Origin: a virus | Lineage: Duplodnaviria > Caudoviricetes | DNA length: 64,000 nucleotides | IMG/VR virus record: IMGVR_UViG_2974638963_000001 | Coordinates: 32,001-96,000 of that record | Strand: one strand, 5' to 3' | Shown here: positions 766 to 27,756 of the stretch, piece after piece | Numbering within the stretch: the stretch's first letter is position 1 | How the letters are laid out: every line of letters starts with the position of its first letter | Notes under the pieces: generated by a model | Told to the model about the DNA's origin: nothing | Seen by the model: only the letters and a program-made list of their open reading frames with translations | Databases searched by the model: none | Program-made: the position numbers and the translations under genes

Positions 766-924
766 TGGTCTCGTTGAAGCCCCTTCGGTATATTCCACGG
801 AGCAACCGAACAACCTAGACCCTTAAGATACTGACTCGCCAAAGCCAGGTGAGAAAACCACCTCTCACATCTCTGCATACTCAGTGTATCGCAGTCTTTT
901 TGTTGGCAGCTGGTTCTGGTCATT
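766..924 (-). ncRNA. candidate structured small RNA ending in CCA, enclosed by a 23-bp inverted repeat
   Basis: IR 742-765/925-947; internal stems GGTCT/AGACC, GTTG/CAAC, GCTCC/GGGGC, GTGAGA/TCTCAC; 3' end GAGACCA. Confidence 0.5.
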
Positions 925-1113
925 TATACATATACTTTAATCAACTCAGTTGACTAAAGGTGAGCATAGCCGAGTACTCACGTTGAATTAGTTAGATTCA
1001 TTTGTTTACGGTGCGAGCCACTTAAGGCGTCGGTTGGCGGAGCGCATTCTCCGTTCCCAACCCGTCTATGTTAGTTTCCTATGATAACTAAGCATTCTCT
1101 GCTAACATAAATT

Positions 1114-1503: not shown

Positions 1504-1688
1504 TAGAACCTCGATGGATAAATTTCTTTCAGTTTAGACTTTACATAGCCAGTTTCATCACGAACAGCGTTTTCAAGTTGTAAAATGTAGTCATATACCG
1601 GTTTTGGTACAGCTATATGCTCGACAACACCATCACCTACTTGAACTGCTACATTACAATTACCATCTGAATACGGTCTAAAAGTCAT
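1503..1688 (-). CDS. hypothetical protein
   Basis: ORF track; GAGGA SD; directly downstream of promoter; stop/start overlap with next ORF. Confidence 0.7.
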   Translation of the reverse strand: MTFRPYSDGNCNVAVQVGDGVVEHIAVPKPVYDYILQLENAVRDETGYVKSKLKEIYPSRF

Positions 1689-1719
1689 TTCTTATTTCCT
1701 CATTTCAATTTATAAATAT

Positions 1720-1748
1720 ATTATAACTGAAATTTGTGTATTTGACAA
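1720..1748 (-). promoter_or_regulatory. sigma70-type T5 early promoter
   Basis: TTGTCA-17-TATAAT with A-rich UP element. Confidence 0.8.
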
Positions 1749-1756
1749 TTGATTTT

Positions 1757-1966
1757 TTAATTTAATATCCGTAAACTATCAAAGGACATTAGAGGTATTT
1801 CTTTAACAGGTACTTGTTCCATCACTGGAGTCTCTTCAAATACCTTTCGATCTACAAGAACTAACTGTTTACGAGTTGTTCTTTCAGGAATCTCCATAAC
1901 TAAAATACTTGGAGATTCTAGGATAATTGGCATTCGTAACAGTGAGATCTTTGCTCTACTACGCAT
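1757..1966 (-). CDS. hypothetical protein
   Basis: ORF track; AAGGA SD. Confidence 0.6.
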   Translation of the reverse strand: MRSRAKISLLRMPIILESPSILVMEIPERTTRKQLVLVDRKVFEETPVMEQVPVKEIPLMSFDSLRILN

Positions 1967-1984
1967 AGTAATTATCCTTAGAGT

Positions 1985-2060
1985 TGGCGCGGGCGAGGGG
2001 ACTCGAACCCCTGCTGTACGGGTTGGAAGCCCGACCGAATAGCCGCTATCTTACGCACGC
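1985..2060 (-). tRNA. tRNA-Gly(TCC)
   Basis: Anticodon arm TCGGG-CT TCC AA-CCCGT, T-arm GGGGTTCGAGTCCCC, CCA. Confidence 0.88.
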
Positions 2061-2374
2061 TTAAATAATTTTTTAAACAGAGTTTTTATCTCATCCCAAA
2101 GACTATTTATCTGAAAATCAGGTACAATTCTTTCTTTAGGAAACTCTGGCATCTTTGGTAACTTAATGCTCCGATTAAATTCCTGCTCGGCTTGATCTCT
2201 AGTTTTAGCTAGGCTAGAGAACAAAGTATAGGATTCACCAAGTTCATCCAGTTCCTGTAGTGTAATAGTTTGATTATCTTCTAAATAAACGAAATCAATA
2301 CCTTTCTTAGTAGTATAAACTTTACTTACTGGATACTTAAGGAGAATGTAATCCGACGCTAAGTATTTTTGCAT
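2051..2374 (-). CDS. hypothetical protein (stop codon inside tRNA-Gly)
   Basis: ORF track; coupled to upstream ORF. Confidence 0.7.
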   Translation of the reverse strand: MQKYLASDYILLKYPVSKVYTTKKGIDFVYLEDNQTITLQELDELGESYTLFSSLAKTRDQAEQEFNRSIKLPKMPEFPKERIVPDFQINSLWDEIKTLFKKLFKRA

Positions 2375-2742
2375 TAAAAATGTACCCTTGTTAATTTGAT
2401 TCCCATGTCAGCAAGAAACTGCTCTGCTGACATCATAGATGCTGCTGCCGATGGATTAGAAGTATGAATAAAGATCTCTTCTAATCTTGGCATATCTTCA
2501 AAGAAAATTAATGCTTCAATATGAGCAAAGATGTCTTTTCCTTCGATATCTTCACCAAGATCATTATCTAGGTGAATATGTGTAATTAAGTGCTTATCTC
2601 TTTCTATGAATCGATATGCTGAACCAGAATTAGTAGCTACCAGAATCTTACTATAATGATTATTGTCTGGTAAAAACTGCATAGGTAAACGTATGTCATC
2701 TACCCACAATAATAATTTATCTCTGACCACGAATAACCTCAC
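2374..2742 (-). CDS. cyclic-phosphate-processing receiver-like domain protein
   Basis: Motifs LWVDDIRxP, HLDNDLG..G, IHTSNP typical of the stand-alone phage REC-like family. Confidence 0.7.
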   Translation of the reverse strand: MRLFVVRDKLLLWVDDIRLPMQFLPDNNHYSKILVATNSGSAYRFIERDKHLITHIHLDNDLGEDIEGKDIFAHIEALIFFEDMPRLEEIFIHTSNPSAAASMMSAEQFLADMGIKLTRVHF

Positions 2743-2835
2743 TTGTAGTATCTAGCGCAGGTATTTTAACCATACCTACATCGTGGAACGTTGCCATAAT
2801 AATTATAACTACTAGAGTAATAACTGTTATATATT

Positions 2836-3018
2836 TCATTTAACTAACTCGATAGGTTGCTTACCATCCCAGTTAGAATCTGCTAGGACACGCTTGTAGA
2901 ATAAATAACCAATGTCACCTTGATCTTGTGGATTAGTAATGACTTTGCCTACATCCTTATCTGAAAAGTAAAATGCTTTTGCTGCGTCTGAACCTACGGA
3001 TAACTTGAAAGTTTCCAT
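2836..3018 (-). CDS. hypothetical protein
   Basis: ORF track; GGAGG SD. Confidence 0.65.
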   Translation of the reverse strand: METFKLSVGSDAAKAFYFSDKDVGKVITNPQDQGDIGYLFYKRVLADSNWDGKQPIELVK

Positions 3019-3037
3019 AAAACCTCCGTTTATAAAT

Positions 3038-3122
3038 TGGCGGGCGGTGTAGGATTTGAACCTACGTTGTCCTTTCGAACACGGATTAACAGTCCGTCGC
3101 TAAACCACTCAGCTAACCACCC
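3038..3122 (-). tRNA. tRNA-Asn(GTT) with long variable arm
   Basis: Anticodon arm ACGGA-CT GTT AA-TCCGT, extra arm GTTCGAAAGGAC, CCA. Confidence 0.88.
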
Positions 3123-3128
3123 TTAAAT

Positions 3129-3205
3129 TGGTACTGCGACCTGGGTTTGAACCAGGGAACCTCTCGATTATCAGTCAAGCGCTCTACCAACTGAGCTATC
3201 GCAGT
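3129..3205 (-). tRNA. tRNA-Ile(GAT)
   Basis: Acceptor ACTGCGA/TCGCAGT; anticodon loop CT GAT AA; CCA. Confidence 0.92.
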
Positions 3206-3311
3206 ATTAATTGTAAGAACACTCTTCGAATGCTCTTACAGTTAATTTTGTAAAACTAACTGGTGCACTCCTTTTCAAAGGATTTGGGTAAGCACGTACC
3301 CTCACGGTGTT

Positions 3312-3501
3312 TGGCGTTCTGGAACGGGGGTCGAACCCGCAAATACTAAGATCCTCATTCCTACTCACTGGTCTGCGTAGTCCAGCCCCTCGGTGCTATT
3401 GGATTCTTTTCTTCTGTACCCGAACCTAGTTACTATTTTAACCTCACAGCCTCAATCCACGCAGATGAAAGAGCTAAGCAACCTAGTTGTACAACCAGAC
3501 C
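3312..3501 (-). ncRNA. 190-nt tRNA-like RNA (acceptor stem, T-arm, CCA; large structured insert replacing the anticodon arm)
   Basis: 5' GGTCTGG pairs with 3' CCAGAAC-G-CCA; T-arm GCGGG TTCGACC CCCGT; nested stems TCTTTCAT/ATGAGGA, TCTGCGTGG/CTACGCAGA, GGATT/AATCC. Confidence 0.7.
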
Positions 3502-3507
3502 ATAATT

Positions 3508-3585
3508 TGGCACTGTAGAAGGGAGTCGAACCCTCAATGCTCCACCTTGAAAGGGTGGTGACTTTACCAGTTTGTCCACTACAGT
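3508..3585 (-). tRNA. tRNA-Glu(TTC)
   Basis: Anticodon arm CCACC-CT TTC AA-GGTGG; CCA. Confidence 0.92.
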
Positions 3586-3665
3586 ATAATCTAACTAAGA
3601 CTTGTAGGTCTGTTTCCACGGCTTAATTATCCGATTTGTCTCTACTCATTTACAAGTCTTAAAAT

Positions 3666-3750
3666 TGGTGCAGGATCGTGGACTCGAACCACGGAACCCC
3701 GAGGGGTGAAGATTTACAGTCTCCTGTCATTGCCGCTAGACTAATCCTGC
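3666..3750 (-). tRNA. tRNA-Tyr(GTA)
   Basis: Anticodon loop CT GTA AA, long variable arm ACCCCTCGGGGT, CCA. Confidence 0.92.
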
Positions 3751-3792
3751 TTAATTCATTTTATTAATTTCTTCTCTCAATTCAATATAAAT

Positions 3793-3821
3793 ATTATAAC
3801 AAATATTTTGGTATTTAACAA
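3793..3821 (-). promoter_or_regulatory. sigma70-type early promoter directly upstream of tRNA-Tyr
   Basis: TTGTTA-17-TATAAT, UP element. Confidence 0.8.
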
Positions 3822-3839
3822 TTGAATTTTTAAATAATT

Positions 3840-3915
3840 TGGAGCACACTACAGGATTCGAACCTGTGACCACTTCGTTCGTAGCGAAGAACTCTGTCCA
3901 CTGAGTTAAGCATGC
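3840..3915 (-). tRNA. tRNA-Arg(ACG)
   Basis: Anticodon arm CTTCG-CT ACG AA-CGAAG; CCA. Confidence 0.92.
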
Positions 3916-4082
3916 TTTTTATCTTTCCTTTGAGATCGTCTAAAACCTGTACCCTGGCAAGTCTCACATTCCCAAGTGTTATACTGAGTATCACCAGGCT
4001 CTGCATCATTTACTTCGCCCAAACCACGACATTCTGGACATTTACAGGCTTTTAACGCTTCTAGTAGTTCTAGGTATTTCAT
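3906..4082 (-). CDS. 58-aa DnaJ-type zinc-finger microprotein (not in ORF track)
   Basis: MKYLELLEALKACKCPECRGFG...WECETCQGTGF...; two CxxCxGxG motifs; AAGGA SD. Confidence 0.7.
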   Translation of the reverse strand: MKYLELLEALKACKCPECRGLGEVNDAEPGDTQYNTWECETCQGTGFRRSQRKDKKHA

Positions 4083-4097
4083 AGAATTTCCTTAAAT

Positions 4098-4173
4098 TGG
4101 TGCTGACGACAGGCATCGAACCTGCGACCTGATGCTTACAAGGCAACTGCTCTACCAACTGAGCTACGTCAAC
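4098..4173 (-). tRNA. tRNA-Thr(TGT)
   Basis: Anticodon loop CT TGT AA; canonical D and T arms; CCA. Confidence 0.92.
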
Positions 4174-4178
4174 GAATT

Positions 4179-4252
4179 TGGTACTCGCTGGAGGAATCGA
4201 ACCACCGCTTAGTCCGTGTAAAGGACTAGCACTACCGTTATACTAAGCGAGT
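4179..4252 (-). tRNA. tRNA-Val(TAC)
   Basis: Anticodon arm AGTCC-TT TAC AC-GGACT; CCA. Confidence 0.9.
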
Positions 4253-4253
4253 A

Positions 4254-4460
4254 TTAAATATGCCCTGCTTTCTTTAACTGTCTTTCCATATATTTCTGAC
4301 AGACTTTTTGCAGGTATCCGGATTTTGTATGTTCATACAGGACTCTCATTTTATTATGATATAGGGCAACCCCATCTTCACGAGTAGCTGTATAAACCAT
4401 AGTAACCATTCCGTATTTAGGCTCTGAGAGCCTGTAATTAAAACTTATTTTCTTAGACAT
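4254..4460 (-). CDS. hypothetical protein
   Basis: ORF track; AGGAG SD. Confidence 0.7.
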   Translation of the reverse strand: MSKKISFNYRLSEPKYGMVTMVYTATREDGVALYHNKMRVLYEHTKSGYLQKVCQKYMERQLKKAGHI

Positions 4461-4477
4461 GTAAGTCTCCTATAAAA

Positions 4478-4555
4478 TGGGGTGACGGACGGGACTTGAA
4501 CCCGCACATTCCCGAATCACAATCGGGGGCATTAAACCAATTCTGCTACCGCCAC
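4478..4555 (-). tRNA. tRNA-His(GTG)
   Basis: Anticodon arm CCCGA-TT GTG AT-TCGGG; C73; T (not G) at position -1. Confidence 0.92.
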
Positions 4556-4695
4556 ATCTAAGAGACCTCGTAAAGTGTCTTAGATGTAGGCGATAAAGCC
4601 TACACTAGATTTATGAATGCTCTTGTCAGTCACGAACATTGGAACATTACCGTTAATCTACAACGCCGCAAGCACCCCCTCACGGTGGAGACTTC

Positions 4696-4770
4696 TGGTG
4701 CACCATAGTGGTATCGAACCACTCTATCAGGCTCTTCAAACCTGCGCTAATCCATCTCAGCTAACGGTGC
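4696..4770 (-). tRNA. tRNA-Phe(GAA)
   Basis: Anticodon arm CAGGT-TT GAA GA-GCCTG; CCA. Confidence 0.9.
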
Positions 4771-4775
4771 GTATT

Positions 4776-4852
4776 TGGCAGGTATGACGGGGATCGAACC
4801 CGCTATCTCCGCAGTGACAGTGCGGTGTCTTGTCCATTTCGACCTCATACCT
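4776..4852 (-). tRNA. tRNA-Asp(GTC)
   Basis: Anticodon arm CCGCA-CT GTC AC-TGCGG; G73; CCA. Confidence 0.92.
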
Positions 4853-4858
4853 ATTGTT

Positions 4859-4934
4859 TGGTGGAGAAAAGGGGATTTGAACCCCTAACCGTCTGCTTGC
4901 AAAGCAGGTGCTCTACCAATTGAGCTACATCCCC
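4859..4934 (-). tRNA. tRNA-Ala(TGC)
   Basis: G3:U70 pair; anticodon loop TT TGC AA; CCA. Confidence 0.92.
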
Positions 4935-4941
4935 ATAAATT

Positions 4942-5018
4942 TGGTCTCGAATAAAGGATTTGAACCTTTGACCCCACCGCCCCAAACGGCGTACTCTACC
5001 AGACTGAGCTAATCCGAG
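4942..5018 (-). tRNA. tRNA-Pro(TGG)
   Basis: Anticodon loop TT TGG GG; C1-G72; CCA. Confidence 0.92.
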
Positions 5019-5230
5019 ATAATTTCACTACCTAGTTCGATATGAGCTATTTCTAGACGATCACCACGTTCCCAATCATCACACTGCATATCAACCTTTT
5101 CAAATATGAAGTCTTGACTTTCTTGACTAGTCATAGACTTCAAACTTTCAAATTCTTCATCAGTCAAAGATACTTCTGATGTTACTTCAATAACTTCTGT
5201 TGCATATACTTTATAAACACGTTTAGTCAT
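5009..5230 (-). CDS. hypothetical acidic protein (stop codon inside tRNA-Pro)
   Basis: ORF track 5009..5248; likely start MTKRVY behind AAGGA SD. Confidence 0.7.
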   Translation of the reverse strand: MTKRVYKVYATEVIEVTSEVSLTDEEFESLKSMTSQESQDFIFEKVDMQCDDWERGDRLEIAHIELGSEIISD

Positions 5231-5260
5231 TTTTATTTCCTTTCTCAAGTTTATAAATAT

Positions 5261-5289
5261 ATTATACAGTATATTTAAGCATTTAGCAA
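5261..5289 (-). promoter_or_regulatory. sigma70-type early promoter
   Basis: TTGCTA-17-TATAAT. Confidence 0.8.
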
Positions 5290-5311
5290 CTGATTTAATA
5301 AACTTTTTGCT

Positions 5312-5461
5312 CTACGCTAAGTTATAAATAAGTGAACTTATTTGGTCAGCACTTACTGAGAATAGTAAGGCATATACTGACTGGTCGTATCGCTCACCTA
5401 GTCTAACAAATATTAGTTTACCAGTGCCTTTATTTCTAGCAATGTATATTACATCATCCAT
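5312..5461 (-). CDS. hypothetical protein (49 aa)
   Basis: ORF track 5312..5506 trimmed to ATG after tRNA-Ser; GAGG SD. Confidence 0.55.
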   Translation of the reverse strand: MDDVIYIARNKGTGKLIFVRLGERYDQSVYALLFSVSADQISSLIYNLA

Positions 5462-5476
5462 AAAGACCTCAGAAAT

Positions 5477-5570
5477 TGGAGGAAGAAGCGGGGCTCGAAC
5501 CCGCACACCGTCTTTCGACAGCTACTAACTGTTTAGCAAACAGTTCCCTTACCATTAGGGTTACTCTTCC
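5477..5570 (-). tRNA. tRNA-Ser(GCT)
   Basis: Anticodon arm ACTGT-TT GCT AA-ACAGT, long variable arm, CCA. Confidence 0.9.
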
Positions 5571-5752
5571 TCTGTGTAAAACTTTAGTTCAGCTATTAAC
5601 TGCTGCATTTTAGCTTTTCGCTTATCATATCCAGCTTCCGGTTTTTCCGCATGTGCCTTATCTAATAGATCTAACATAACCTCAGCTAACGCTAGGGCGG
5701 CAAAACTCATTTTATTGATGCTTTCTTTAGCACCTAGTTTATCGTGTTCCAT
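5561..5752 (-). CDS. hypothetical protein (stop codon inside tRNA-Ser)
   Basis: ORF track; AGGA SD. Confidence 0.7.
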   Translation of the reverse strand: MEHDKLGAKESINKMSFAALALAEVMLDLLDKAHAEKPEAGYDKRKAKMQQLIAELKFYTEEE

Positions 5753-5796
5753 AATTTTATCCTATATTTTAATCCTGCGCCCCAGAGCTACAGTGT

Positions 5797-6270
5797 TTAG
5801 TAATCGTCGTCAAATTCGATTTCTTCGTTTAGGTTTTCGCTATTCGAGATAACGTGAACCCCAACATTAAATACCCTAGACAAATATTCTGCAATAAGCT
5901 GAGCCTCCTCAACTTTACAATTAACTTCATCGTAGAAGATGATCTCGCCTTTAGCATTGATATAACTTTGCTTAGTTATCTGGTACAGATCAGGCATTAA
6001 GTAATGGATAAAGTCCCACTCGTCAATCTGATCTTCAGTAAGGCTAGGTGCACCAGCAATTACGATACCTTTCTTAATCCATTCACGAAATACAGTTTCG
6101 ATATAGTCATAGTCTACGCTATCGTAGCAATGAGCAAATGGAACAAGATTAATATCTACTTCTGGGTGCTCTTCACACTCAATGCGCCAACCTGAGGCAT
6201 AACCGCCACCACAAGTCTCGCAGTCCATACTGTCGTGCAAACGAGTTACCCTAACATAAATCTGACCCAT
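5797..6270 (-). CDS. hypothetical acidic protein with CxxC
   Basis: ORF track 5797..6348 trimmed to MGQIYV (AGGAG SD) because the upstream part is tRNA-Lys. Confidence 0.7.
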   Translation of the reverse strand: MGQIYVRVTRLHDSMDCETCGGGYASGWRIECEEHPEVDINLVPFAHCYDSVDYDYIETVFREWIKKGIVIAGAPSLTEDQIDEWDFIHYLMPDLYQITKQSYINAKGEIIFYDEVNCKVEEAQLIAEYLSRVFNVGVHVISNSENLNEEIEFDDDY

Positions 6271-6287
6271 TGTATCTCCTAGAAAAG

Positions 6288-6363
6288 TGGTACGCCGTAT
6301 AGGAGTCGAACCTACAACCTCGGGATTAAAAATCCCTTGCTCTGCCAATTGAGCTAACGACGC
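6288..6363 (-). tRNA. tRNA-Lys(TTT)
   Basis: Anticodon arm AGGGA-TT TTT AA-TCCCG; CCA. Confidence 0.92.
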
Positions 6364-6367
6364 TGAA

Positions 6368-6677
6368 ATTAATTAAGGTTGATTTCCCTGTACCCTGGCA
6401 GAGGTAAACTAAGCCACCACAGCTTAGAACTTCTTTGAGACGGTCTTGCGAAGAAATTAGTCACCTAGTTATTCACACTCACCGTTTCAAGGAGTAAATG
6501 TTACTAGAACTGGTATGAGGTACGCTCTTTCTCACCACTCGAGCTGCTGTAGGGACTCGAACCCTACAGAGCATAGGTTTACCCTCTAAACTGTATCTTC
6601 GCCCGTTTCGTGCTTGCCACACGCTCGTATCGGACTCTGTAATAACTCAAAGATTTCAGGAAAATCACTTAATTAAT
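6368..6677 (-). ncRNA. candidate ~310-nt structured RNA with T-arm hairpin and kissing loop
   Basis: Terminal IR 6368-6390/6657-6677; stem 6400-6410/6576-6587; CTGTAGGG TTCGAGT CCCTACAG; loop-loop complement 6435-6444/6481-6490; promoter immediately upstream; no ORF. Confidence 0.65.
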
Positions 6678-6695
6678 CTCGATTTCATAAAATAT

Positions 6696-6724
6696 ATTAT
6701 ATCAATAAATTAAGCACTTGACAA
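6696..6724 (-). promoter_or_regulatory. sigma70-type early promoter driving the 310-nt RNA
   Basis: TTGTCA-17-TATAAT. Confidence 0.8.
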
Positions 6725-6774
6725 GTAATTTTTTAAAATATTTACTAGAGAGCTAATGACTAACTATCTAGTAA

Positions 6775-6798
6775 ATATCCCCTCTTTCGAGGGGATAT
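6775..6798 (-). terminator. hairpin terminator after the membrane-protein pair
   Basis: ATATCCCCTC-TTTC-GAGGGGATAT inverted repeat. Confidence 0.55.
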
Positions 6799-6804
6799 CA
6801 TTAA

Positions 6805-7374
6805 TTACTTAGTGAACTTTATAGATTCTTGAACACGAGTTTCAAAGATACCTTGAGTTCTAGCATCAGATACGATTGCACATAACGAATCAATATCTTT
6901 CTTAGGGAATCCAGCAAAGGCTAAGAATCGACCTTTCCAGAAGTATTCTAACTGATTACGATACGTAGCACACTGCTCTAACTTACGGTTCTGAGCAATA
7001 GCGAACTCATTACGACCTGCCGTTATTTCATGTTGTATATTCAAGTACAGAGCTGAATCTAGATTCAGGTTACGTTCTTGAATCCATTGAAAAACTGCTT
7101 TGGAGCCATCTGCACCATAACGACCTTGGAAAGTTTCTTTAATTACTTCCTTTAAATCGTCTTTGTACATTTCAGGGACTTGAATGATTTCCCCAATTTT
7201 CACGGTGTAGTTACTAAGTTTATTCTCAGATTCTTTATCTAACCGAACGATGTTGTTTTCCATTCGTGTAGCTTCGTTAGATGTCGATACGTACCCTGCA
7301 AAGATACCTAAGCCACCAACGATAAGAATAGTTAAGAATGTAAGAATAGCTACTAGACCTTTGGTCAATTTCAT
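6805..7374 (-). CDS. LemA-like membrane-anchored protein
   Basis: N-terminal TM helix; C-terminal 'LYxxIQxEIxxGRNEFAIAQ...YRNQLxxFW...FAGF' resembles LemA. Confidence 0.55.
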   Translation of the reverse strand: MKLTKGLVAILTFLTILIVGGLGIFAGYVSTSNEATRMENNIVRLDKESENKLSNYTVKIGEIIQVPEMYKDDLKEVIKETFQGRYGADGSKAVFQWIQERNLNLDSALYLNIQHEITAGRNEFAIAQNRKLEQCATYRNQLEYFWKGRFLAFAGFPKKDIDSLCAIVSDARTQGIFETRVQESIKFTK

Positions 7375-8420
7375 TATAAATCCTCTTTAATACAAAAGAT
7401 AGCAAAGCCGATATTGGCGATAAAGTTTAACACAATTACAAATATCAAAGCACCAGTCGGAATATCTACTACATCATCTAGGTACTTAAATGTATCATTT
7501 GGTAATCGCTTGTAGTGCTTAACAATTAAATCATACTGGGTCTGTACTAGACTTAGATTAAACTCTGGAGAACCAAGACCAGTAGCCGCTAATTTAGTCA
7601 GCAGTAACTGATTATCTTGTCCATTCCCAAGAGTGTTCGCTCTTAGCCATTTTACCTTGTTATCGTCATCTAAACTGTATACAATAACAACATCATTCTT
7701 TTTACCACCATGCCATTTATGCATAAGTGCGTCAAAGAAGTCTTCACCAGCTTGTGTAACCACTAAAGTTATATTGAGCTGGTAAGTAGAACCATCTAAC
7801 CTCAACTTTTCATTGAGAAAGTTGTTGATATCAGGTGCATACTTACCAACAATTCTATTTATTCTGTAGTAATCATATACTCGTGGATAGTCAGGTAAAC
7901 TATCAGCGTACTTTTCTAAAGTAGCATCTTCCACAACGTACATACCTTTATCTAACCTAGTGTAATTATTAACACTAAATGTTGCTGAGTACGGCTCATT
8001 TACTACAGCGGCTGACCATCTAGGGGGCTCTTTAAGCCCACGTCGATCAACTCGACTAATTTTTGAGTAGTCAATGGTAGACTCTACGATCCAGTCTACA
8101 TCATAAGAATGCTCGTCACAATAGATTGGTATACAGGTTCTATTGCCTTTTGAGTCTGTAGAACATGTTTCGCCACATTTATATTGATGTTCACAACTAA
8201 CACGTTCAGAATATTTTTTGGTTACATAACCATTTCGTATTTCAGTATCCCATTTACCGGAGCTTGCTGCAAAAACAGCCATTCCTAGCATTAATAGAGA
8301 ACTGAATGCTGCTACCCCTAACTGAATAAGTAGCTCTTTTCTAGAGATCTTATGTCTAAAGAAAATGTTAGAGGTAGCAACTACAAACAGGGAACAGGCA
8401 AATAAGATAATGAAATACAT
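7374..8420 (-). CDS. multi-pass membrane protein with Cys-rich and TPM-like extracytoplasmic region
   Basis: 2 N-terminal and 1 C-terminal TM helices; 'WHGGKKNDVVIV' resembles the TPM motif; translationally coupled to the LemA-like gene. Confidence 0.6.
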   Translation of the reverse strand: MYFIILFACSLFVVATSNIFFRHKISRKELLIQLGVAAFSSLLMLGMAVFAASSGKWDTEIRNGYVTKKYSERVSCEHQYKCGETCSTDSKGNRTCIPIYCDEHSYDVDWIVESTIDYSKISRVDRRGLKEPPRWSAAVVNEPYSATFSVNNYTRLDKGMYVVEDATLEKYADSLPDYPRVYDYYRINRIVGKYAPDINNFLNEKLRLDGSTYQLNITLVVTQAGEDFFDALMHKWHGGKKNDVVIVYSLDDDNKVKWLRANTLGNGQDNQLLLTKLAATGLGSPEFNLSLVQTQYDLIVKHYKRLPNDTFKYLDDVVDIPTGALIFVIVLNFIANIGFAIFCIKEDL

Positions 8421-8455
8421 CTGGTTTCCTTAGATTGTAGTTGCTTTATTAAAAT

Positions 8456-8531
8456 TGGTGCACCTAGGAGGGACTCGAACCCACAACCAAGCCCTTATGA
8501 GGGGCACGCTCTACCATTAAGCTACTGGTGC
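8456..8531 (-). tRNA. tRNA-Met/Ile2(CAT)
   Basis: Anticodon arm TGCCC-CT CAT AA-GGGCT; C4-G/C5-G acceptor pairs favour Ile2 (lysidine). Confidence 0.85.
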
Positions 8532-8539
8532 GATAAAAC

Positions 8540-8920
8540 TTAACCCGCTAACGCGTATAAATCACCTGCTAACAGCTCATGGGATTCACCAGTCTGACCG
8601 TGCGTTACGCCCATGATAACAACATCTTCATCTTCGCCACCCTGTTTAACTTGTTCAGCCATAACAGTGAATACATGGATTGCGTTATCATTTAAATCGC
8701 CATTCTCGATTGCGAAGATAACATCTTCCATCATCAGAGTTGCTTCGCCATCTTCGCTTGGAACTACGATGAACCAATCTTCTAGCATACCCTCTGCGAT
8801 TGCAAAACGCATAAATTCAACAACGTCTTGTGGAGTCTCAATATTGATACCTTGATTTTCAAGCTCAGCGGTCATAACAGCAGAGATAACGCCAGCGATT
8901 TTAACAGTTACTTTAGACAT
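8540..8920 (-). CDS. hypothetical acidic protein
   Basis: ORF track; AAGGA SD; own promoter. Confidence 0.8.
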   Translation of the reverse strand: MSKVTVKIAGVISAVMTAELENQGINIETPQDVVEFMRFAIAEGMLEDWFIVVPSEDGEATLMMEDVIFAIENGDLNDNAIHVFTVMAEQVKQGGEDEDVVIMGVTHGQTGESHELLAGDLYALAG

Positions 8921-8958
8921 ATTTTATTTCCTTTTGGATTGATTAATTTATAAGATAT

Positions 8959-8987
8959 ATTATACAGAATAATTCAGTATTTGGCAA
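8959..8987 (-). promoter_or_regulatory. sigma70-type early promoter
   Basis: TTGCCA-17-TATAAT. Confidence 0.8.
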
Positions 8988-8995
8988 TTGAATTT

Positions 8996-9373
8996 TTAAT
9001 TATTAAACCCTGAGTCTACTAAATCGTATACCATATAGGCTGTTAGACTAACGCTAGTATCTTTATATGAGGATGAGAATACTACTTCATTATCAGATAC
9101 GGCGTGCACTTTTAGTAAAGTGTATAGTTGTAAAAAGAAAGTCACAGCTTCCGGAGTATAGTTGTTGTTCCTAGCAATTTCTACAGCTGATGGCATTAAC
9201 ATAGATACTGCCAGTGGTTCTCTCAATTTATATACAACTACATTATCTAATGACTCTACAAAGTCATACACAGTGGTTTCTTGTTCATCCCAGCCATATT
9301 CAGTCGCTAGTTCTTGTATAACTATATCAAAGTATTCGGGAATTGCTTCTTTTCCTGACATCAGTACCCTCAC
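8996..9373 (-). CDS. hypothetical protein
   Basis: ORF track. Confidence 0.7.
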   Translation of the reverse strand: MRVLMSGKEAIPEYFDIVIQELATEYGWDEQETTVYDFVESLDNVVVYKLREPLAVSMLMPSAVEIARNNNYTPEAVTFFLQLYTLLKVHAVSDNEVVFSSSYKDTSVSLTAYMVYDLVDSGFNN

Positions 9374-9389
9374 TAATAAATATAAAAAT

Positions 9390-9464
9390 TGGCGTCCCCT
9401 ATAGGATTCGAACCTATGTATATCGGTTTAGAAGACCGATGCCTATCCTCTAGACTAAGGGGAC
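9390..9464 (-). tRNA. tRNA-Arg(TCT)
   Basis: Anticodon arm TCGGT-CT TCT AA-ACCGA; acceptor GTCCCCT/AGGGGAC; CCA. Confidence 0.92.
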
Positions 9465-9471
9465 TTGAAAA

Positions 9472-9720
9472 TTAATCTTCAGGATCTAAATCTGTCTCTA
9501 CCATGGTGATAGTTACTTCTTCTGTGTCACCACTATCGGTTTGGCGCGAACCTTTACCCGTATCAGTAATAATCAGATTGAACAGTTCTTCGTCTGTAAG
9601 TGTGATAGCGTAGTCCGCTAGCAAAATTACTTGGATATCCCCAGGGGTTGCAAGTTCACCATCTACGATAAAGTGCTCAGGTGATTTATCTTTGCTAGTG
9701 ATATTAAATAGTAAATTCAT
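9472..9720 (-). CDS. hypothetical acidic protein
   Basis: ORF track; AAGGA SD. Confidence 0.75.
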   Translation of the reverse strand: MNLLFNITSKDKSPEHFIVDGELATPGDIQVILLADYAITLTDEELFNLIITDTGKGSRQTDSGDTEEVTITMVETDLDPED

Positions 9721-9798
9721 TTGTTGTTCCTTTTAAGTTAAAATTAGTGAGCAGTTTTGGAGATGCTCAGCTCCACGGTTTCCCAAGGTAGTAGGGAA

Positions 9799-10197
9799 TT
9801 AAGTTAATTCGATCCAATTTTCATTGGAAATGTTCTGACCGTACACACCGCCATAGAAGTAGGTATCTTCCCCAGGAAGTACGATATTACCACCGTAGTA
9901 CCCGTTATGTTCTGTACGACATTCCATATCCATGATACCGGTAGAGGTTAGTAATTTACAACCATAACGGTCTGTAACGTCACCGTATTCTGCATGGATA
10001 GAATCTAGAGTATAGTCCTCAATGCCTTGAATAACAAACGGCATTTTTACAGGTAATTCAACGTGTTGGAAGAAGCTACTAGCGCAACAATCTCCGTCTA
10101 CACGAATAATTAAATCTTCACCAGTATCTGTTACTAACTTGACAGCTAGATCATCGGATGCTAGAAATACCTGTACAATACATTTTCCGATTAACAT
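9799..10197 (-). CDS. hypothetical protein (DCC...NGYYGG phage family)
   Basis: ORF track; GAGGA SD; conserved-looking DCC and NGYYGG motifs. Confidence 0.75.
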   Translation of the reverse strand: MLIGKCIVQVFLASDDLAVKLVTDTGEDLIIRVDGDCCASSFFQHVELPVKMPFVIQGIEDYTLDSIHAEYGDVTDRYGCKLLTSTGIMDMECRTEHNGYYGGNIVLPGEDTYFYGGVYGQNISNENWIELT

Positions 10198-10221
10198 TTT
10201 ATGTTCCTCTTAAAGTTGAAT

Positions 10222-10889
10222 TGGTAATGGGTTTAGGCTTTCTTCGTCTATATACAGTACGGTTACTAGTATTGTATGCATATTAAGTAGTGCCAGCGAA
10301 TGCTTAGCTTATAAGCCTCAGTTATCCTATTCTTTAACCACCTAGATGAACTAGACAGCCCAGTGTTATAACATAAGCGAGTTCGACACACCCATTTCGG
10401 GAAATACTCTACACTTTTTCCAGATACCCATCTTAGGTATTCCACCTAGGTCGGAGGTAGCCTCTCCTTTTATCCGGTGTGCTACGAGCAAAGTAGATCC
10501 CGAAATGGGGAGTGATCAATTCCTCATTTCCAAGTTAAGTACTTGGGACTCAATAGCCTAGTTCGCGACCTAGACTACTTATTCGTTGTTTTCACACATC
10601 ATGCTCCACGGGTGGAGGAATCGAACCTCTCTAGAGCGCTATTTCCCAGAATCCCGTATCTTCGCAGTTTTTGTGTTACTTACTTATTTTAGTCACTACT
10701 CCTTGAACCACATATACCACCCAGGTATACGTGGCGGGGCAGTAACAAAGGCAGAGTTTAGTGGTAGATTTAACTTACCAACATATTCTCTCAGATCTTG
10801 TACAGTGTGCGTTAGACCTCAGCGTAGTATGCCCGCTGTGCCTCTTATTAAATCGTACTTTTAGACTTAATTGCCGTGTTCCGATTCAA
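10222..10889 (-). ncRNA. candidate ~670-nt large ornate ncRNA (GOLLD/ROOL-like in size and context)
   Basis: Non-coding gap directly downstream of a promoter; many helices (e.g. 12-bp 10391-10402/10498-10509, 10708-10734, 10554-10577), internal T-arm GAGGTTCGATTCCTC, paired ends, 3' ACCA. Confidence 0.7.
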
Positions 10890-14216: not shown

Positions 14217-14714
14217 TTAGAAATTTTCCAATTCGATATCTGCGATAGCTGATTGGTTTAACGCATCTACAAATAAGTTACCCTTAGAAGTATCGTGAGC
14301 CTTAACCCACTCAATTCTAGGAGGATTAGGTAGTGCGTGGTACGCCGTGTAAATCTCTTGCCAAAGCCCAGCATTTTCTAACTTCTTATTGCCCGCTTTC
14401 TTCCAGCCACGACCTTTCCAGCCTTCCATCCATTCCATAATACCACGCTTTACTAACATAGAGTCAGTATAAATAACATCTAAGATAAGCGGTAGCGTAC
14501 GTAGAACTTTCAGTAGTTCTAGCATTGCCGTCATTTCCATAATGTTATTAGTTGTCCACTTATCATTTCCCCAACCCTTACACTCTGTGCCTAGGGGGCT
14601 AGTTAATATGTTGTCACCATTAAATACAGCCCATGCCCAACCACCAGGTCCAGGGTTTCCGTGGCAACCACCGTCGGTGTATCCCTGATATGTTGGAGTT
14701 TCCCAAGTTTTCAT
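14217..14714 (-). CDS. rnh: ribonuclease HI
   Basis: 'YTDGGCHGNPGPGGW', 'TTNNIME', 'YTDS', 'WVKAH', 'GNLFVD'. Confidence 0.96.
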   Translation of the reverse strand: MKTWETPTYQGYTDGGCHGNPGPGGWAWAVFNGDNILTSPLGTECKGWGNDKWTTNNIMEMTAMLELLKVLRTLPLILDVIYTDSMLVKRGIMEWMEGWKGRGWKKAGNKKLENAGLWQEIYTAYHALPNPPRIEWVKAHDTSKGNLFVDALNQSAIADIELENF

Positions 14715-23476: not shown

Positions 23477-23681
23477 TTTCTGTAGGGATTGTGCAATTGA
23501 TATTTTGGGTTTCGACACCAAAGATCTTGCAGGTTTAATTACTAAAGAAGATATGTATAACGGAATCCGTGCCCACGTGATATGTGAGGGCTGTGGGTGG
23601 ATTCTAGTAGACCATAATGGTGTTCGTGTTGCTCCTGATGACAATGTTCAAGAGGTAGATAAGAATGAAGAAGATCACTAG
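23469..23681 (+). CDS. small zinc-binding hypothetical protein
   Basis: MADFCRDC...CEGCG motif. Confidence 0.75.
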   Translation: MADFCRDCAIDILGFDTKDLAGLITKEDMYNGIRAHVICEGCGWILVDHNGVRVAPDDNVQEVDKNEEDH

Positions 23682-23961
23682 ATGGTGGGTAGCTAGAACA
23701 AGCCCTAATGATGTTGCCTTAGATCTAGCCACTGTGTGCACTCGTGTTATAAATAGGTCTAGAGTGGGCAATGCAGTAGCTTCCCAACTAACTCAAGTTA
23801 CAGAGACTGAAATAGAGCGTGTTAAAAAATTAAATGTTAATGCTACTGATATTAACATGTTAGTCCAGATATTATGTGGGTTAGGTGTACAACTAGATTG
23901 TAGCGCAGCTAATATTCCTGATATTATCAAGCGTGAATGGGACCTAGAGGAAGAGCAGTAA
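23665..23961 (+). CDS. hypothetical protein (possible HTH)
   Basis: ORF track; GAGG SD. Confidence 0.7.
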   Translation: MKKITRWWVARTSPNDVALDLATVCTRVINRSRVGNAVASQLTQVTETEIERVKKLNVNATDINMLVQILCGLGVQLDCSAANIPDIIKREWDLEEEQ

Positions 23962-24260: not shown

Positions 24261-24327
24261 AATTTAGAAAGTGGTGGGAAATTTGGCTGTTCAAATAGGA
24301 ACCACCACCCCGATTTATAAAAATTTC

Positions 24328-24356
24328 TTGCAATCGTCGAAAACTTTTGTTATAAT
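24328..24356 (+). promoter_or_regulatory. sigma70-type promoter upstream of structured leader and obp
   Basis: TTGCAA-17-TATAAT. Confidence 0.8.
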
Positions 24357-24364
24357 ATATTCAT

Positions 24365-24945
24365 AGTTTGGAAATTCTTAGGCGTTTAAGAAAAGCGCCT
24401 AACGATTTGTAAACTCTAGATTGATTTACATTTGTCACTCAGTATGTATCCGGTTCGTGGGGCAACCCCAACGTAGATAACGCTGATTATCTCTAACCAC
24501 ATAAATTCTTAACTAGTTCGACAGCTATAAAGCTGGCTTTGCTACCTGAAATCCGACCTGTTGTGCGGTGTAGTCTTATGAAGTCTCTTCGGAGAAAACC
24601 ATGTTGTCATAGGGCTAGGGTAACGATAAGAACGCGGTCAATTAAACTTCTCAGAGGATGTAGGTTCGCCCTGTCTTCGGAGCACACCTGCTTAGCGGCG
24701 AATCATGAGGTGGCGTGCGAAGTTTATGTAGACTAGCAATAGCAGTCCGGCGGAGTGAGACCAAAGGCGTATAGTGAGAATAAGAAGAGAGTGTATGTGG
24801 TTAGGATGTTTTCTTTTTCGAAAGAACTCGAACAAAAAGTAAGTTGATTGTATTTGCTAGGTGAACCCTCGGGCAACTGACATAGTAACTGAACAAATCT
24901 TAGAGCATAACTGTTCCCTGGCTAAACAGGATGGACAGGATAATT
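24365..24945 (+). ncRNA. candidate ~550-nt highly structured RNA / 5' leader of the origin-binding protein gene
   Basis: Nested helices 24493-24503/24794-24804, 24571-24581/24607-24617, 24643-24650/24719-24726, 24665-24670/24697-24702; cUUCGg and GCAA tetraloops in + sense. Confidence 0.65.
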
Positions 24946-24975
24946 GTAACCTTTTAACTATAGGAGTAACTCTAC

Positions 24976-27756
24976 GTGTTCACGATTTTAGAGGGACATG
25001 AGGGGTGGACAAGAGATCAAGCAACCGGTAACTGGGTTCCGTCTAACGAGGACTTCGTGTTTGCTAAAGAATTCTCTGAACAGTTTCCAATGGGTAAACC
25101 TCACTCACTTCCAACCAAGTTTAATGTTGTGAATGAATATGACCCAAAGACACTCCCTGAAATGATGGATTTATTAAAGTTAATTACAGCTAACCCTCAA
25201 TGGATGGTTATTCGTGCAAAACCGAAGGCAGCTCGACGTGCAATTTATAGACGTAAAGTGAATTTCGAAACTTCTAATAAATCTAATATAATCGCTATCG
25301 ACGTGGATGATTTTCCACTTCCTGACGATATATCTCCGTTTGATATTGCCGCCCAAGGACGTTACGTTCTAGGCATCCTTAATTCAATTAGCGAGGAGAT
25401 GTTCCCATTAGATGCAGGTTTTATTGCACATGCATCGTCTTCTGCTGGTATTAAGTCTGGTATTCGTCTGCATATGTTCTTTCAGACTAATATTCCAGTA
25501 ACTCAAGGACAATTGAAATTCACGTTCTCATCTATTAATGAATCTTCACGAGAAAAATATAATGGAGTTAACGTAATTGACTTGGCTTATTACTCAGCTG
25601 TTCAGGCACATTATTTTGCCGACCCAATTTTCAAAGCCCCATTTAAAGATCCTTTCAAACAGGAGAAAGTCGCACGTCTGAGATTTGTTTCCGGTGGAAC
25701 AATAAATATGCCAGACAATGTGCCAGACTTTGAGTCTACTAAGGGGGAGTTTAAAGAGGAATTTTACTCTTTGTTAGATCAAATTAAAGGAAAACGTTCA
25801 ACATCAGATAAGGTTGAGCGAATCATTGGAGAACTGGAAGATGCAGAAGATGGTGTTTATCTTCGTATAATTCCCAAGTTATATCACAATGCACTAGAAG
25901 AGGGTATAGATCTAGCATGGCTAGAAAAGGAAATTACTCCAGCATTGTCTCTATATGTAGCACATAAAGACAACAGAAGAACTATTCAGGAATACTTTAC
26001 CAACGGTCGTAAGCAGGCTTTGAAAGCTTTTGTAAACAACTCTAAACGAGAGATACCGTTAAACTTAAAAGGCGTTCCAATTAAGCAGTTAGAAACTAAC
26101 TCTGCTGAACAGGATAGATTCTTAAAGTTAGATAAATTACCACCCGAAGGATCAATGACATTTGTTAAGTCTAGCCTGGGAACTGGTAAAACAACAGCTA
26201 TTATTAAATGGCTAGATTCTGGTATGATTGATGGGGGATTCCTAGCAATCACAAACACTCGTGCCTTAGTTTCATCAAACGCAAAGAAATTCACGTCTGG
26301 TCAATATAACAAATCTATTGATATGTTAGACTTTAAGAGAGGTGGATTAACTAGAATGTCCTCAACGATTCACTCTATTCATAAATTCAAGGGTTTAGTT
26401 GATAAGGTTGACTTTGTATTTATAGATGAGGCAGATGCGGTAATGAATGATTTATTATTTGCACCTGTTGTTAAGAATCGCAGACAGTGTATCGAAACGT
26501 TACGTGACCTTTTATTAAATGCGAAACATGTAATTTTATCTGATGGTGATATCAGTGCAGAAACCGTAGAAGCCTATGGTAGTCTTATAGATTTTGATAA
26601 ACCAATTAATTTCTTTAATCATCATCGTCGAATGTTACAAGGTGCTCAAGCATATGAATTCTCAGATGCAGAGTCGGTCTGGGTCGCTTTTCAAACTTCA
26701 TTAGAAATGGGTGAGAAGTCAATCATAGTAACAGACTGTGGGCCTGCAGAATTAGGTGAACGTGGTATTGCTTTACGAGAAGCCACTGGTTGTATAGTTA
26801 AAGAGATCCATTCCAACTCAACCGAAGACCCTGACATTCGCAAAATACTAGACTATACTAATGAAGAACTTATCAATCAAAATGTTCACGGATTATTATG
26901 TAGTCCATCAGTAACTAATGGAGTTGACTGGAACTATTTTGATAACGTATTCTTATTGACTTTAACGCCTAATCAAGCCCCAAACATGCGATTCCAGGCA
27001 TTACGACGAGATCGTGGAGCACAGACTTTCTATTTCTATACAGATAAGTCAACAAGTGGTTTCGATGCAGGTTCTACTCAGTATAATGCTGAGGAAGGGT
27101 GGCTAGATGCTAGTCAACAATCTTATGCAAGACGTAGGGAAACTGAAAGTCGAAACTATGCCTCAACTTTAAGATATTATTTATTAGACCAAGGCGCTAC
27201 TATTGATATCTTTACAGAAAGTTGGGGTAAAATGGAATCGGCGGCGGATGTCTATAAAGAAGAAAGGGTTAACGCTATCTTATCATCTCTACCAGATTAT
27301 ACTCCTTTACGTCACAATGATGCTTATGATGCTAAACTATTACTGATGTCTTATTATCATATTGATAAACTATCAGAAGTAACCAGAGAACTAGCGGAGT
27401 CATTTGTAGAACAGAAGCCCAACGAGAGAGCAGAGTTCTTTCATAAGGTAGTAGATTTACTGTGGCCGGCAATAAAGAAATGTACTAGCGTTTCGGTAAC
27501 TCCACTAGCAGAGGCATTAAAGAAACATAAACGAGAGTTCTTCTTATTAACTGGTCAATCGGCTCAGGCTAAATATACTCGTAAATATCTAGGAATGATG
27601 GGAATTGGTAAAGATCTTGACCTTGAGAACATCAAAGACTGGTATAGAACCTATTGTAAAATAGAGGGTATACAGTTGCATCCCGATTTTATGACAGATA
27701 AAGAGCGTTCTCTATATGAAGAGGCTAGTATGGATTTGAGGTTCGATGATGAGTAA
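24976..27756 (+). CDS. obp: replication origin-binding protein (AEP primase-like N-terminus + SF2 helicase)
   Basis: 'IAIDVDD' and 'RLHMFF' AEP-like motifs; Walker A 'SLGTGKT', 'FIDEAD'; GTG start with AGGAG SD; T5 synteny. Confidence 0.9.
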   Translation: MFTILEGHEGWTRDQATGNWVPSNEDFVFAKEFSEQFPMGKPHSLPTKFNVVNEYDPKTLPEMMDLLKLITANPQWMVIRAKPKAARRAIYRRKVNFETSNKSNIIAIDVDDFPLPDDISPFDIAAQGRYVLGILNSISEEMFPLDAGFIAHASSSAGIKSGIRLHMFFQTNIPVTQGQLKFTFSSINESSREKYNGVNVIDLAYYSAVQAHYFADPIFKAPFKDPFKQEKVARLRFVSGGTINMPDNVPDFESTKGEFKEEFYSLLDQIKGKRSTSDKVERIIGELEDAEDGVYLRIIPKLYHNALEEGIDLAWLEKEITPALSLYVAHKDNRRTIQEYFTNGRKQALKAFVNNSKREIPLNLKGVPIKQLETNSAEQDRFLKLDKLPPEGSMTFVKSSLGTGKTTAIIKWLDSGMIDGGFLAITNTRALVSSNAKKFTSGQYNKSIDMLDFKRGGLTRMSSTIHSIHKFKGLVDKVDFVFIDEADAVMNDLLFAPVVKNRRQCIETLRDLLLNAKHVILSDGDISAETVEAYGSLIDFDKPINFFNHHRRMLQGAQAYEFSDAESVWVAFQTSLEMGEKSIIVTDCGPAELGERGIALREATGCIVKEIHSNSTEDPDIRKILDYTNEELINQNVHGLLCSPSVTNGVDWNYFDNVFLLTLTPNQAPNMRFQALRRDRGAQTFYFYTDKSTSGFDAGSTQYNAEEGWLDASQQSYARRRETESRNYASTLRYYLLDQGATIDIFTESWGKMESAADVYKEERVNAILSSLPDYTPLRHNDAYDAKLLLMSYYHIDKLSEVTRELAESFVEQKPNERAEFFHKVVDLLWPAIKKCTSVSVTPLAEALKKHKREFFLLTGQSAQAKYTRKYLGMMGIGKDLDLENIKDWYRTYCKIEGIQLHPDFMTDKERSLYEEASMDLRFDDE

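Follow-up and report, generated by a model that had tools for sequence, protein, structure and literature searches.

What is encoded in the unannotated gap in front of the origin-binding primase-helicase gene of a T5-like phage, and which function would keep it more constant than the genes on either side? T5 is a classic model phage; to our knowledge, neither its replication origin nor the loading of its initiator helicase has ever been defined at the sequence level. The window analyzed here is a stretch of 64,000 nucleotides (bases 32001-96000 of the 118,537-bp genome of a T5-like phage with direct terminal repeats of 10,461 bp; IMG/VR record IMGVR_UViG_2974638963_000001), and all positions given below are window positions unless stated otherwise. 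Directly upstream of obp, the orthologue of the T5 gene D2, it contains a 715-nt gap at 24261-24975. Comparison with related loci shows that this gap encodes a promoter-driven, highly structured RNA with a predicted length of about 450 nt, which is maintained by compensatory mutations.

The evidence for the fold is comparative. Upon folding of the single sequence, the plus strand differed from shuffled sequences by z = -2.4 and the minus strand by z = -1.2; these values are only mildly exceptional, so that the sequence alone proves little and the comparison with relatives becomes decisive. An Obp protein search of Logan assemblies returned relatives at 97, 83, 80, and 73% identity, and the contigs gave the loci L053 and L054 (Obp 83%) and L055-L058 (80%), with gaps of 0.7-0.9 kb upstream of obp. 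The structure model was derived from the window and five relatives whose Obp proteins are 80-97% identical (six sequences, alignment A5); between the start site and about 24830, the loci of the relatives can be aligned well with the window. The RNAalifold consensus comprises 137 pairs in 19 helices, 35 of these pairs showing compensatory changes. Standard pairs occupy 92.0% of the cells, compared with 39-48% after the 3' partners had been slid by 1-3 columns; changes on both sides, counted on the alignment, are present at 36 pairs versus 2-8 in the slid controls; and the covariation score is 0.306 versus 0.04-0.09. None of 500 shuffles reached the observed pairing and covariation values. Typical exchanges are GGGG-CAA-CCCC to CCC...GGG (L053), UAAACUUC/GAAGUUUA to UGAAAAUC/GAUUUUCA, CUC-UUCG-GAG to UUCC-UUUU-GGAA (L055), and CCACAU/AUGUGG to CCAAAU/AUUUGG. 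Since cells with G.U (13.8%) far outnumber those with A.C (1.2%), the fold belongs to the transcribed plus strand.

The boundaries of the element are given by its constraint. The nearest public record is the Providencia phage PSTCR5 (Demerecviridae, Priunavirus), which is 94.4% identical across the region and carries no annotation where the RNA lies. The flanking genes nrdD and obp are 92.2% and 91.8% identical, respectively, while the RNA reaches 99.2-99.4% at 24363-24650 and 99.2% at 24686-24812; over their 415 nt, these two segments together differ at 3 positions, compared with about 33 predicted from the divergence of the flanking genes (8%). Between them, a peripheral hairpin at 24651-24685 is only 65.7% identical, and its tip is changed from GG-UUCG-CC to GG-UACG-CC in PSTCR5, that is, from one UNCG loop to another. 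The tail at 24813-24975, with 84.8%, falls below the coding flanks, and the linker from the RNA to obp varies from about 80 to 290 nt even among phages with identical Obp (L055-L058). Because of the 99% identity of the core and the plasticity of the 3' tail, the functional unit is placed at about 24363-24820, where it ends in an invariant arrangement of stalk plus UUUUCUUUUU. Selection at the RNA level, for which a sequence-only reading of the window had argued from stable tetraloops, is thus borne out by the compensatory changes, by the excess of G.U over A.C, and by the conservation of the RNA at 99% amid flanking genes at 92%. The same reading had named covariation among obp-upstream regions as the check on its fold; the 36 compensatory pairs against 2-8 in the slid controls provide it, and the T5 group, described below, covaries as well.

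Transcription of the RNA would start from an early sigma-70 promoter on the plus strand at 24328-24356 (TTGCAA at 24328-24333, a 17-nt spacer, TATAAT at 24351-24356, and the TG of an extended -10 element). It matches the consensus at 10 of 12 positions, is the sole such plus-strand site upstream of obp in the window, and would place the start near 24363; a promoter occurs at the equivalent position in other lineages and is annotated there in T5. That the RNA is transcribed is concluded from this promoter together with the strand-specific covariation. The promoter is preceded by a terminator-like hairpin of the upstream operon at 24271-24327 (plus strand; GUGGUGG 24271-77 pairing with CCACCAC 24302-08, followed by a U/A-rich run), predicted from the sequence; the terminator scan missed the hairpin at 24271-24308 because its loop exceeds 8 nt, and in T5 a terminator is annotated at the corresponding position. 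The upstream neighbour is a 107-codon open reading frame (ORF) that ends at 24260. No ORF of the gap has a Pfam match. Its only ORF of at least 60 aa, a 65-aa frame with TTG start at 24539-24736, was rejected as a gene, there being no Pfam match and the indels of the relatives not being divisible by three; a 10-codon ATG ORF at 24445 is absent from L053 and was likewise rejected. The downstream gene obp (24976-27756, plus strand, GTG start) encodes a 926-aa superfamily 2 (SF2) helicase that has a primase-like N-terminal part and, at residues 393-533, a Herpes_ori_bp domain (PF02399), and that is 64% identical to T5.108. The T5 D2 protein has been characterized as a bipolar SF2 helicase, with the domain at the same position as in the window Obp (PMC3632103). 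In these respects the sequence-only reading was right: it had described about 600 non-coding nucleotides between a strong TTGCAA-17-TATAAT promoter and the gene of an origin-binding primase-helicase, and had noted that the phage encodes RNase H, which is found on the minus strand at 14247-14681 (PF00075, 89 bits).

According to the consensus, the parts of the RNA follow each other in the order 5' hairpin, three-tier hairpin, a rod of about 46 bp, two three-way junctions closed by the rod, and a U-rich tract, all on the plus strand. The 5' terminal hairpin (24367-24413; core pairs 24378-87/24392-402) is present in the minimum free energy fold and as helix 2 of the consensus, where GGCG/CGCC is replaced by GGCA/UGCC in L053; L055 forms the same hairpin with a different sequence. 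The three-tier hairpin (24439-24486) is built from helices 3-5, that is, 24439-43/24482-86, UAUC/GAUA at 24447-50/24476-79, and CGUGGG/CCCAACG at 24456-61/24467-73 with the tip GGGG-CAA-CCCC, and in these helices 7 pairs are changed on both sides. It is followed by the 5' strand of a 30-bp stalk (helix 6, 24488-24519), which pairs with 24778-24808; of its 30 pairs 8 are compensatory, and 94% of the cells are paired. Helices H7 (5' strand 24524-34) and H8 (5' strand 24536-42), helices 7 and 8 of the consensus, add 16 further coaxial pairs and complete the rod. In H8, GCUUUGC at 24536-42 pairs with GCAAUAGC at 24736-43, showing a UA-to-CG covariation.

The rod carries a first three-way-junction domain, H9-H12 (24543-24622), in which H9 (UACCU/GGGUA) is joined through the conserved UGAAAU of J9/10 to H10 (CCG...CGG, 24553-68), while the H11/H12 hairpin (24571-24617) has the tip CUC-UUCG-GAG and a conserved GUUGUC internal loop. 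A conserved single-stranded joiner, ACGAUAAGAACGC at 24623-24635, within which GAUAAGAAC is invariant in 6 of 6 sequences, leads to the second three-way junction (24636-24734). There, two elements lie inside H13 (24636-39/24731-34) and H14 (24643-53/24716-26), namely a hypervariable hairpin, H15 (about 24654-24682), and a conserved motif, H16/H17 (24683-24713); H13-H17 are helices 13-17 of the consensus. The tip of H15, GGUUCGCC at 24663-70 (GG-UUCG-CC), follows the pattern GG-UNCG-CC and is UACG in PSTCR5 and c-UUCG-g in L053. The H16/H17 motif contains the invariant hairpin UGCU-UAGC-GGCG (24689-24700) with CUUAGCGG at 24691-98, which rests on a variable outer stem and has a 3' bulge of 6-10 nt behind it; covariation is seen at its outermost pair (U-G, U-A, A-U, G-C). 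When the outer stem was tested against shuffles lineage by lineage, significance was not reached (p 0.05-0.45), and the support for this stem comes from covariation within each clade. The 3' strands of H8 (24736-43) and H7 (24766-75, GGCGUAUAGU), with hairpin H18 (24745-61) between them, lie in the region 24736-24775 that holds the GUAUAGUGA motif, which is common to the T5 and EPS7 types. Finally, the purine-rich 3' strand of the stalk (24778-24808, GAGAAUAAGAAGAGAG..., GC skew +0.5) is directly followed by the U-rich tract UUUUCUUUUUC (24809-24819), in which GGUUAGGAUGUUUUCUUU is invariant in 6 of 6 sequences and which represents a possible 3' end, pause, or attenuation site.

Several helices drawn in the sequence-only reading recur in this model. 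Thus, CTAACCACATA/TATGTGGTTAG is part of the 30-bp stalk with its 8 compensatory pairs, TAGTCTTATGA/TCATAGGGCTA forms 24571-81/24607-17 with 4 compensatory pairs, and TAAACTTC/GAAGTTTA (24643-50/24719-26) is replaced by UGAAAAUC/GAUUUUCA in L053; the loops GGGG-CAA-CCCC and CUC-UUCG-GAG (24586-95) are upheld by the exchanges in L053 and L055 cited above. Others are not supported. In the proposed helix TTCGCC/GGCGAA, the GGCG at 24697-700 closes the invariant UGCU-UAGC-GGCG hairpin, and GGUUCGCC is a UNCG hairpin tip of its own; a second cTTCGg loop (24674-82) finds no support in the consensus; and the loop CTA-GCAA-TAG gives way to the long-range, covarying pairing of GCAAUAGC with GCUUUGC in H8. 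A closing stem 24414-22/24896-905 stays unverified, lying partly in the poorly conserved tail and not being kept in L053 or L055.

The variable linker to obp (24820-24975, plus strand) contains one conserved hairpin (24911-24938) and the Shine-Dalgarno sequence AGGAG (24962-66). In the relatives it is a place of insertions. The loci L055-L058 (about 2220-2500) carry unrelated insertions between RNA and obp, with none in L056; a repeat of about 30 nt (GAGACCAACTTTTTGCAC...) borders each of them, and that of L055 holds a 56-codon ORF. The linker of these loci thus has the appearance of a hot spot of insertion or recombination. In L053 (2330-2445), and also in L054, about 130 nt are inserted between RNA and obp; this insertion is flanked by repeated GAGATGGACAAT and includes a tRNA-like piece (GGTTCAACTCC T-arm, ...GGCACCA end) as well as a strong promoter 60 nt before obp. 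In L053 the tRNA-like piece gave a weak tRNA-Sec-like match in Rfam (15 bits, E = 7) and no ARAGORN call, and ARAGORN reported no tRNA on six related loci. Farther upstream in the window, a 98-codon ORF at 23665-23961 shows 14.5% identity in the alignment with PSTCR5 and is essentially without counterpart there, adjacent ORFs being 82-98% identical; this small gene is replaced relative to PSTCR5.

For the wider family, 47 IMG/VR loci were collected. T5 itself has, after its annotated terminator and promoter, about 470 untranslated nt before T5.108, and in Klebsiella and Vibrio relatives the gaps upstream of obp measure 0.6-1.1 kb. From the T5, EPS7, My1, and Klebsiella types, 30 leaders could be aligned at their ends, and their common consensus comprises 64 pairs, for which 97.3% of the cells are paired versus 35-49% after sliding; 31 of the 64 pairs are compensatory, and no shuffle reaches the observed values. 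The T5-type RNA has the same position and promoter arrangement as the window RNA and, as far as the order of elements was compared by eye, shows the same sequence of 5' hairpin, tiered hairpin with conserved motif, three-part stalk, and core, with a UGAAAU-type joiner in the junction domain; the invariant CUUAGCGG hairpin with its 3' bulge again belongs to a second junction, the GUAUAGUGA motif recurs, and the stalk is followed by a pyrimidine tract. Upstream of obp, the plus strand of every enterobacterial lineage contains TTAGCGG, and when the lineages' own 52-nt segments were folded, most gave a variable outer stem, an NNCU-UAGC-GGNN hairpin, and a 6-10-nt 3' bulge. The two types differ in leader length (start site to start codon, 616 nt in the window versus about 494 nt in T5, an excess of about 120 nt), in the first conserved motif (UAUCCGGUUCG... 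in the window versus AUACGGAACAGUUAGGCUGCC in the T5 type), and in the extra helix H14 around the motif domain of the window RNA. No sequence similarity between them was detected by blastn, nhmmer, or the one-domain covariance model R1, and nhmmer with the clade profile as well as R1 (domain 24540-24633) retrieved the Priunavirus-type clade only, with no T5-type or Vibrio-type loci. Cross-type motif alignments made with MAFFT (A7, A8) were rejected as a basis for column counts, their outer stems being out of register. As sequence methods do not connect the groups, the window RNA is placed in the T5-type family by motif, architecture, and synteny, and on these grounds, with no statistical match, is regarded as a larger and divergent variant of it, the Priunavirus type.

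The linkage with the primase-helicase gene, which the sequence-only reading had made the centre of its interpretation, holds throughout: in all T5-like lineages of enterobacteria that were examined, with Obp identities down to about 62%, the RNA immediately precedes obp, while the upstream neighbours differ. Between T5 and an EPS7-type phage (L029 versus L007, -400 to +1650 from the obp start), a single divergent tract is seen between flanks that are 90-100% identical; in this tract, identity falls to 44-57% in the RNA core and to 65-95% in the first ~1.6 kb of obp, and a more distant phage that shares the core type keeps that core at 95-96%. By these sequence comparisons, RNA core and 5' half of obp together are a putative cassette of RNA plus N-terminal domain that is exchanged in mosaic fashion and comes in discrete types, as replicon specificity modules do. 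Vibrio T5-like phages (L044-L048, L004) have promoter-fed leaders of about 0.6-1.0 kb upstream of obp, in which the blocks GTAAGAGTG and GTCGGTAYTAG are conserved among divergent members and the CUUAGCGG motif is absent; these leaders may hold a further large RNA type. It is noted that in the Vibrio-type loci the obp start given by tblastn lies about 130 nt too far downstream. In L059 and L060 (Obp 73%; sister samples), the contigs stop at the expected border of the RNA, 235-243 nt before obp, and have a TTGACA...TATAAT-like site about 130 nt before obp; this would reflect either an assembly break within the RNA or a lineage without it.

The RNA matches no family catalogued in Rfam 15. A cmscan against this database, the check proposed with the sequence-only reading, was run on the window, 11 related loci, and L053, both with the gathering threshold and with E up to 10, and returned nothing relevant; in particular, there was no covariance-model match to ROOL, GOLLD, HEARO, OLE, raiA, group I/II introns, RNase P, T-box, or riboswitches. 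A likeness of two motifs to RNase P CR-I and CR-V and of the invariant hairpin to 23S rRNA H43 was dismissed, the motif order being reversed and a covariance-model match lacking. By blastn against phage records the region was found in PSTCR5 only, the T5 RNA had no match in E. coli genomes and the window RNA none in plasmids, and of 140 loci with the 16-mer CCTGAAATCCGACCTG in IMG/VR and JGI metagenomes all except PSTCR5 were chance matches. Further copies at other sites in the loci were not found, nor did the clade profile show similarity to ORF-free stretches of the tRNA region of the window (766-10889; e.g., 10222-10889, 6368-6677). With no description of it found in full-text literature searches, this is an undescribed RNA family in a model phage group.

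What, then, would the RNA do? The explanation ranked first, held tentatively and with ample room for error, is that it is a self-contained unit of a replication-initiation cassette and not merely the leader of obp. The RNA would be transcribed early from the strong promoter near the genome centre and fold into a protein-binding scaffold, with the invariant hairpin and the conserved junctions as likely contacts, to work in cis with the Obp made alongside. Either it would mark or prime the origin region as a structured origin transcript, in the manner of ColE1 RNA II and the pSYSA ssr7036 RNA, or it would be a partner of the initiator. A definite form of the latter idea, in which the RNA is an essential partner of D2/Obp and the initiator recognizes its fold (e.g., the CUUAGCGG hairpin) at its own gene and opens or primes a central origin, is doubtful. 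The RNA is located at 47.6% of the genome length and 3.4 kb away from the divergence point of the coding strands, a position that may be compared with electron microscopy by Bourguignon et al. 1976, which reportedly placed the T5 first-round origin near the centre of the molecule. Of the interpretation given in the sequence-only reading, which proposed an RNA/protein replication-initiation module, the selection at the RNA level and the linkage to obp are supported; for a ColE1 RNA II-like form nothing specific was found.

Several points weigh against a role in initiation. The cumulative GC-skew minimum at about 53 kb coincides with the coding-strand switch and, gene orientation being sufficient to explain it, does not locate an origin independently. 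A repeat search revealed only short two-copy matches, and iterons or repeated boxes, as they are typically seen in origin DNA, were not among them. A stable RNA-DNA hybrid would be disfavoured where the U-rich tract follows the stalk, and no conserved antisense promoter as for ColE1 RNA I was found: the only minus-strand promoter-like sites in or beside the region are 24876-24847 in the variable tail, which is not kept in PSTCR5, and 25012-24985 at the obp start, each with 9 of 12 consensus positions. The joint divergence of RNA core and obp 5' half may reflect linkage only. Two further points of this kind, namely the missing promoter between RNA and obp and a pairing with the Shine-Dalgarno sequence, lead directly to the second-ranked explanation, by which the RNA is a cis-regulatory obp leader, a 5' untranslated region (UTR) that sets the amount of initiator. 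This is possible, if on the whole unlikely.

Neither in the window nor in T5 is there a strong promoter or a canonical terminator between RNA and obp. Without a promoter of this kind, the RNA is physically the 5' UTR of obp, and in the window obp is probably expressed also through read-through from the promoter at 24328-24356. A leader could act in different ways. The 30-bp stalk is long enough to be cut by RNase III, for which a duplex of at least ~20 bp suffices, as in the lambda N leader and the T7 R sites; the invariant U-tract directly after the stalk would suit attenuation; and Obp might bind the conserved hairpin and repress its own translation, as T4 gp32 and gp43 do. Likewise, obp starts with GUG or UUG in the window, L053, and T5-type phages, and the T5-type alignment predicts a 7-bp pairing of a segment beside the 5' hairpin with the Shine-Dalgarno sequence, including one covarying pair, which fits translational control. 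No such pairing is evident in the window, however, and the stretch between RNA and Shine-Dalgarno sequence is the least conserved part and varies in length. Moreover, 19 helices far exceed the need of known operators or RNase III sites, and consensus-like obp promoters lie 3' of the fully conserved RNA in L053/L054 (TTGACC-17-TATAAT at -60, 11 of 12 consensus positions) and in L016/L018 (perfect consensus, 12 of 12 positions, at -66). From these promoters and from the low constraint on the linker it is concluded that the RNA would have a function beyond that of an obp 5' UTR, and the notion of a pure translational regulator of obp appears weakened.

Own promoters of obp in some lineages would equally suit the third-ranked explanation, a trans-acting ornate noncoding RNA that is unrelated to replication initiation, such as a decoy or inhibitor of a host defence or of a host enzyme, or a scaffold like ROOL, GOLLD, or raiA, and that came to lie beside obp by history. 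The RNA is large and multi-junctioned, has UNCG tips and one hypervariable peripheral hairpin, and its discrete, deeply diverged core types are swapped between near-identical phages, as in arms-race loci. Such an RNA would hardly be expected to remain adjacent to obp in all enterobacterial T5-like lineages examined while the upstream neighbours change, to be without a copy elsewhere (E. coli genomes, plasmids, other sites in the loci, and IMG/VR apart from PSTCR5), and to lack a clear terminator, and this explanation is improbable. That the region acts as DNA only, as an origin or spacer without functional fold or as the remnant of a decayed gene or intron, would agree with its central genome position beside the initiator gene and its missing annotation in PSTCR5, but is very improbable indeed in view of compensatory changes that preserve pairing, a G.U excess specific to the transcribed strand, the exchange of one stable UNCG tip for another (UUCG to UACG), and the absence of repeats, intron or ribozyme matches, and ORF conservation.

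If the reading of the RNA as an essential partner of D2/Obp is true, T5-type replication would start from an RNA-protein complex that is specified by exchangeable cassettes of RNA plus N-terminal domain, and origin specification by such a complex would be a way not described for tailed phages. Already now, the RNA stands out as being constrained more strongly than the neighbouring enzymes and as occurring in at least two sequence-unrelated types with a small invariant core, fixed beside the initiator gene, and it offers a concrete, easily testable approach to the initiation of T5-type replication. It is rare for a large RNA to have many helices supported by covariation, and several RNAs discovered in this manner later showed unusual structures or functions. 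New are the Priunavirus-type variant, the structure model, the constraint-based boundaries, and the evidence from obp-proximal promoters, and RNA databases gain a further family. Phage therapy and biocontrol collections make wide use of T5-like phages, in whose genomes the region is left blank or is mis-annotated with tiny ORFs.

Among known systems, ROOL, GOLLD, raiA, and OLE resemble the window RNA in size, in their many covarying helices, and in their occurrence in phages, but none matches it by covariance model even at E up to 10; ROOL and GOLLD are associated with tRNA clusters, whereas the window RNA is tied to obp and is probably part of the obp transcript. RNase III-processed leaders (lambda N, the early R sites of T7, and rRNA stalks) share with it a long near-perfect duplex of distant segments that encloses a folded domain before a gene; those stems are simple, whereas the window stalk encloses about 260 nt of conserved multi-junction RNA. 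With the Rfam models of the ColE1 system (e.g., RNAI) there is no match, whether by the gathering threshold or by E up to 10, and the window scan gave no conserved antisense promoter or RNA I-like partner; as further differences from ColE1 RNA II and the pSYSA RNA, there is no ORF inside the window RNA and the U-tract occupies the place at which a hybrid would have to form. An abundant RNA of pSYSA, ssr7036, lies directly upstream of the gene for the CyRepA1 primase-helicase Rep and has been proposed as replication primer (PMC9978351). With ColE1 RNA II and ssr7036 the window RNA has in common that a promoter-driven, highly structured RNA of about 0.5 kb is found at a replication locus; the phage encodes an RNase H, and, as ssr7036 precedes the gene of a primase-helicase, so does the window RNA precede obp.

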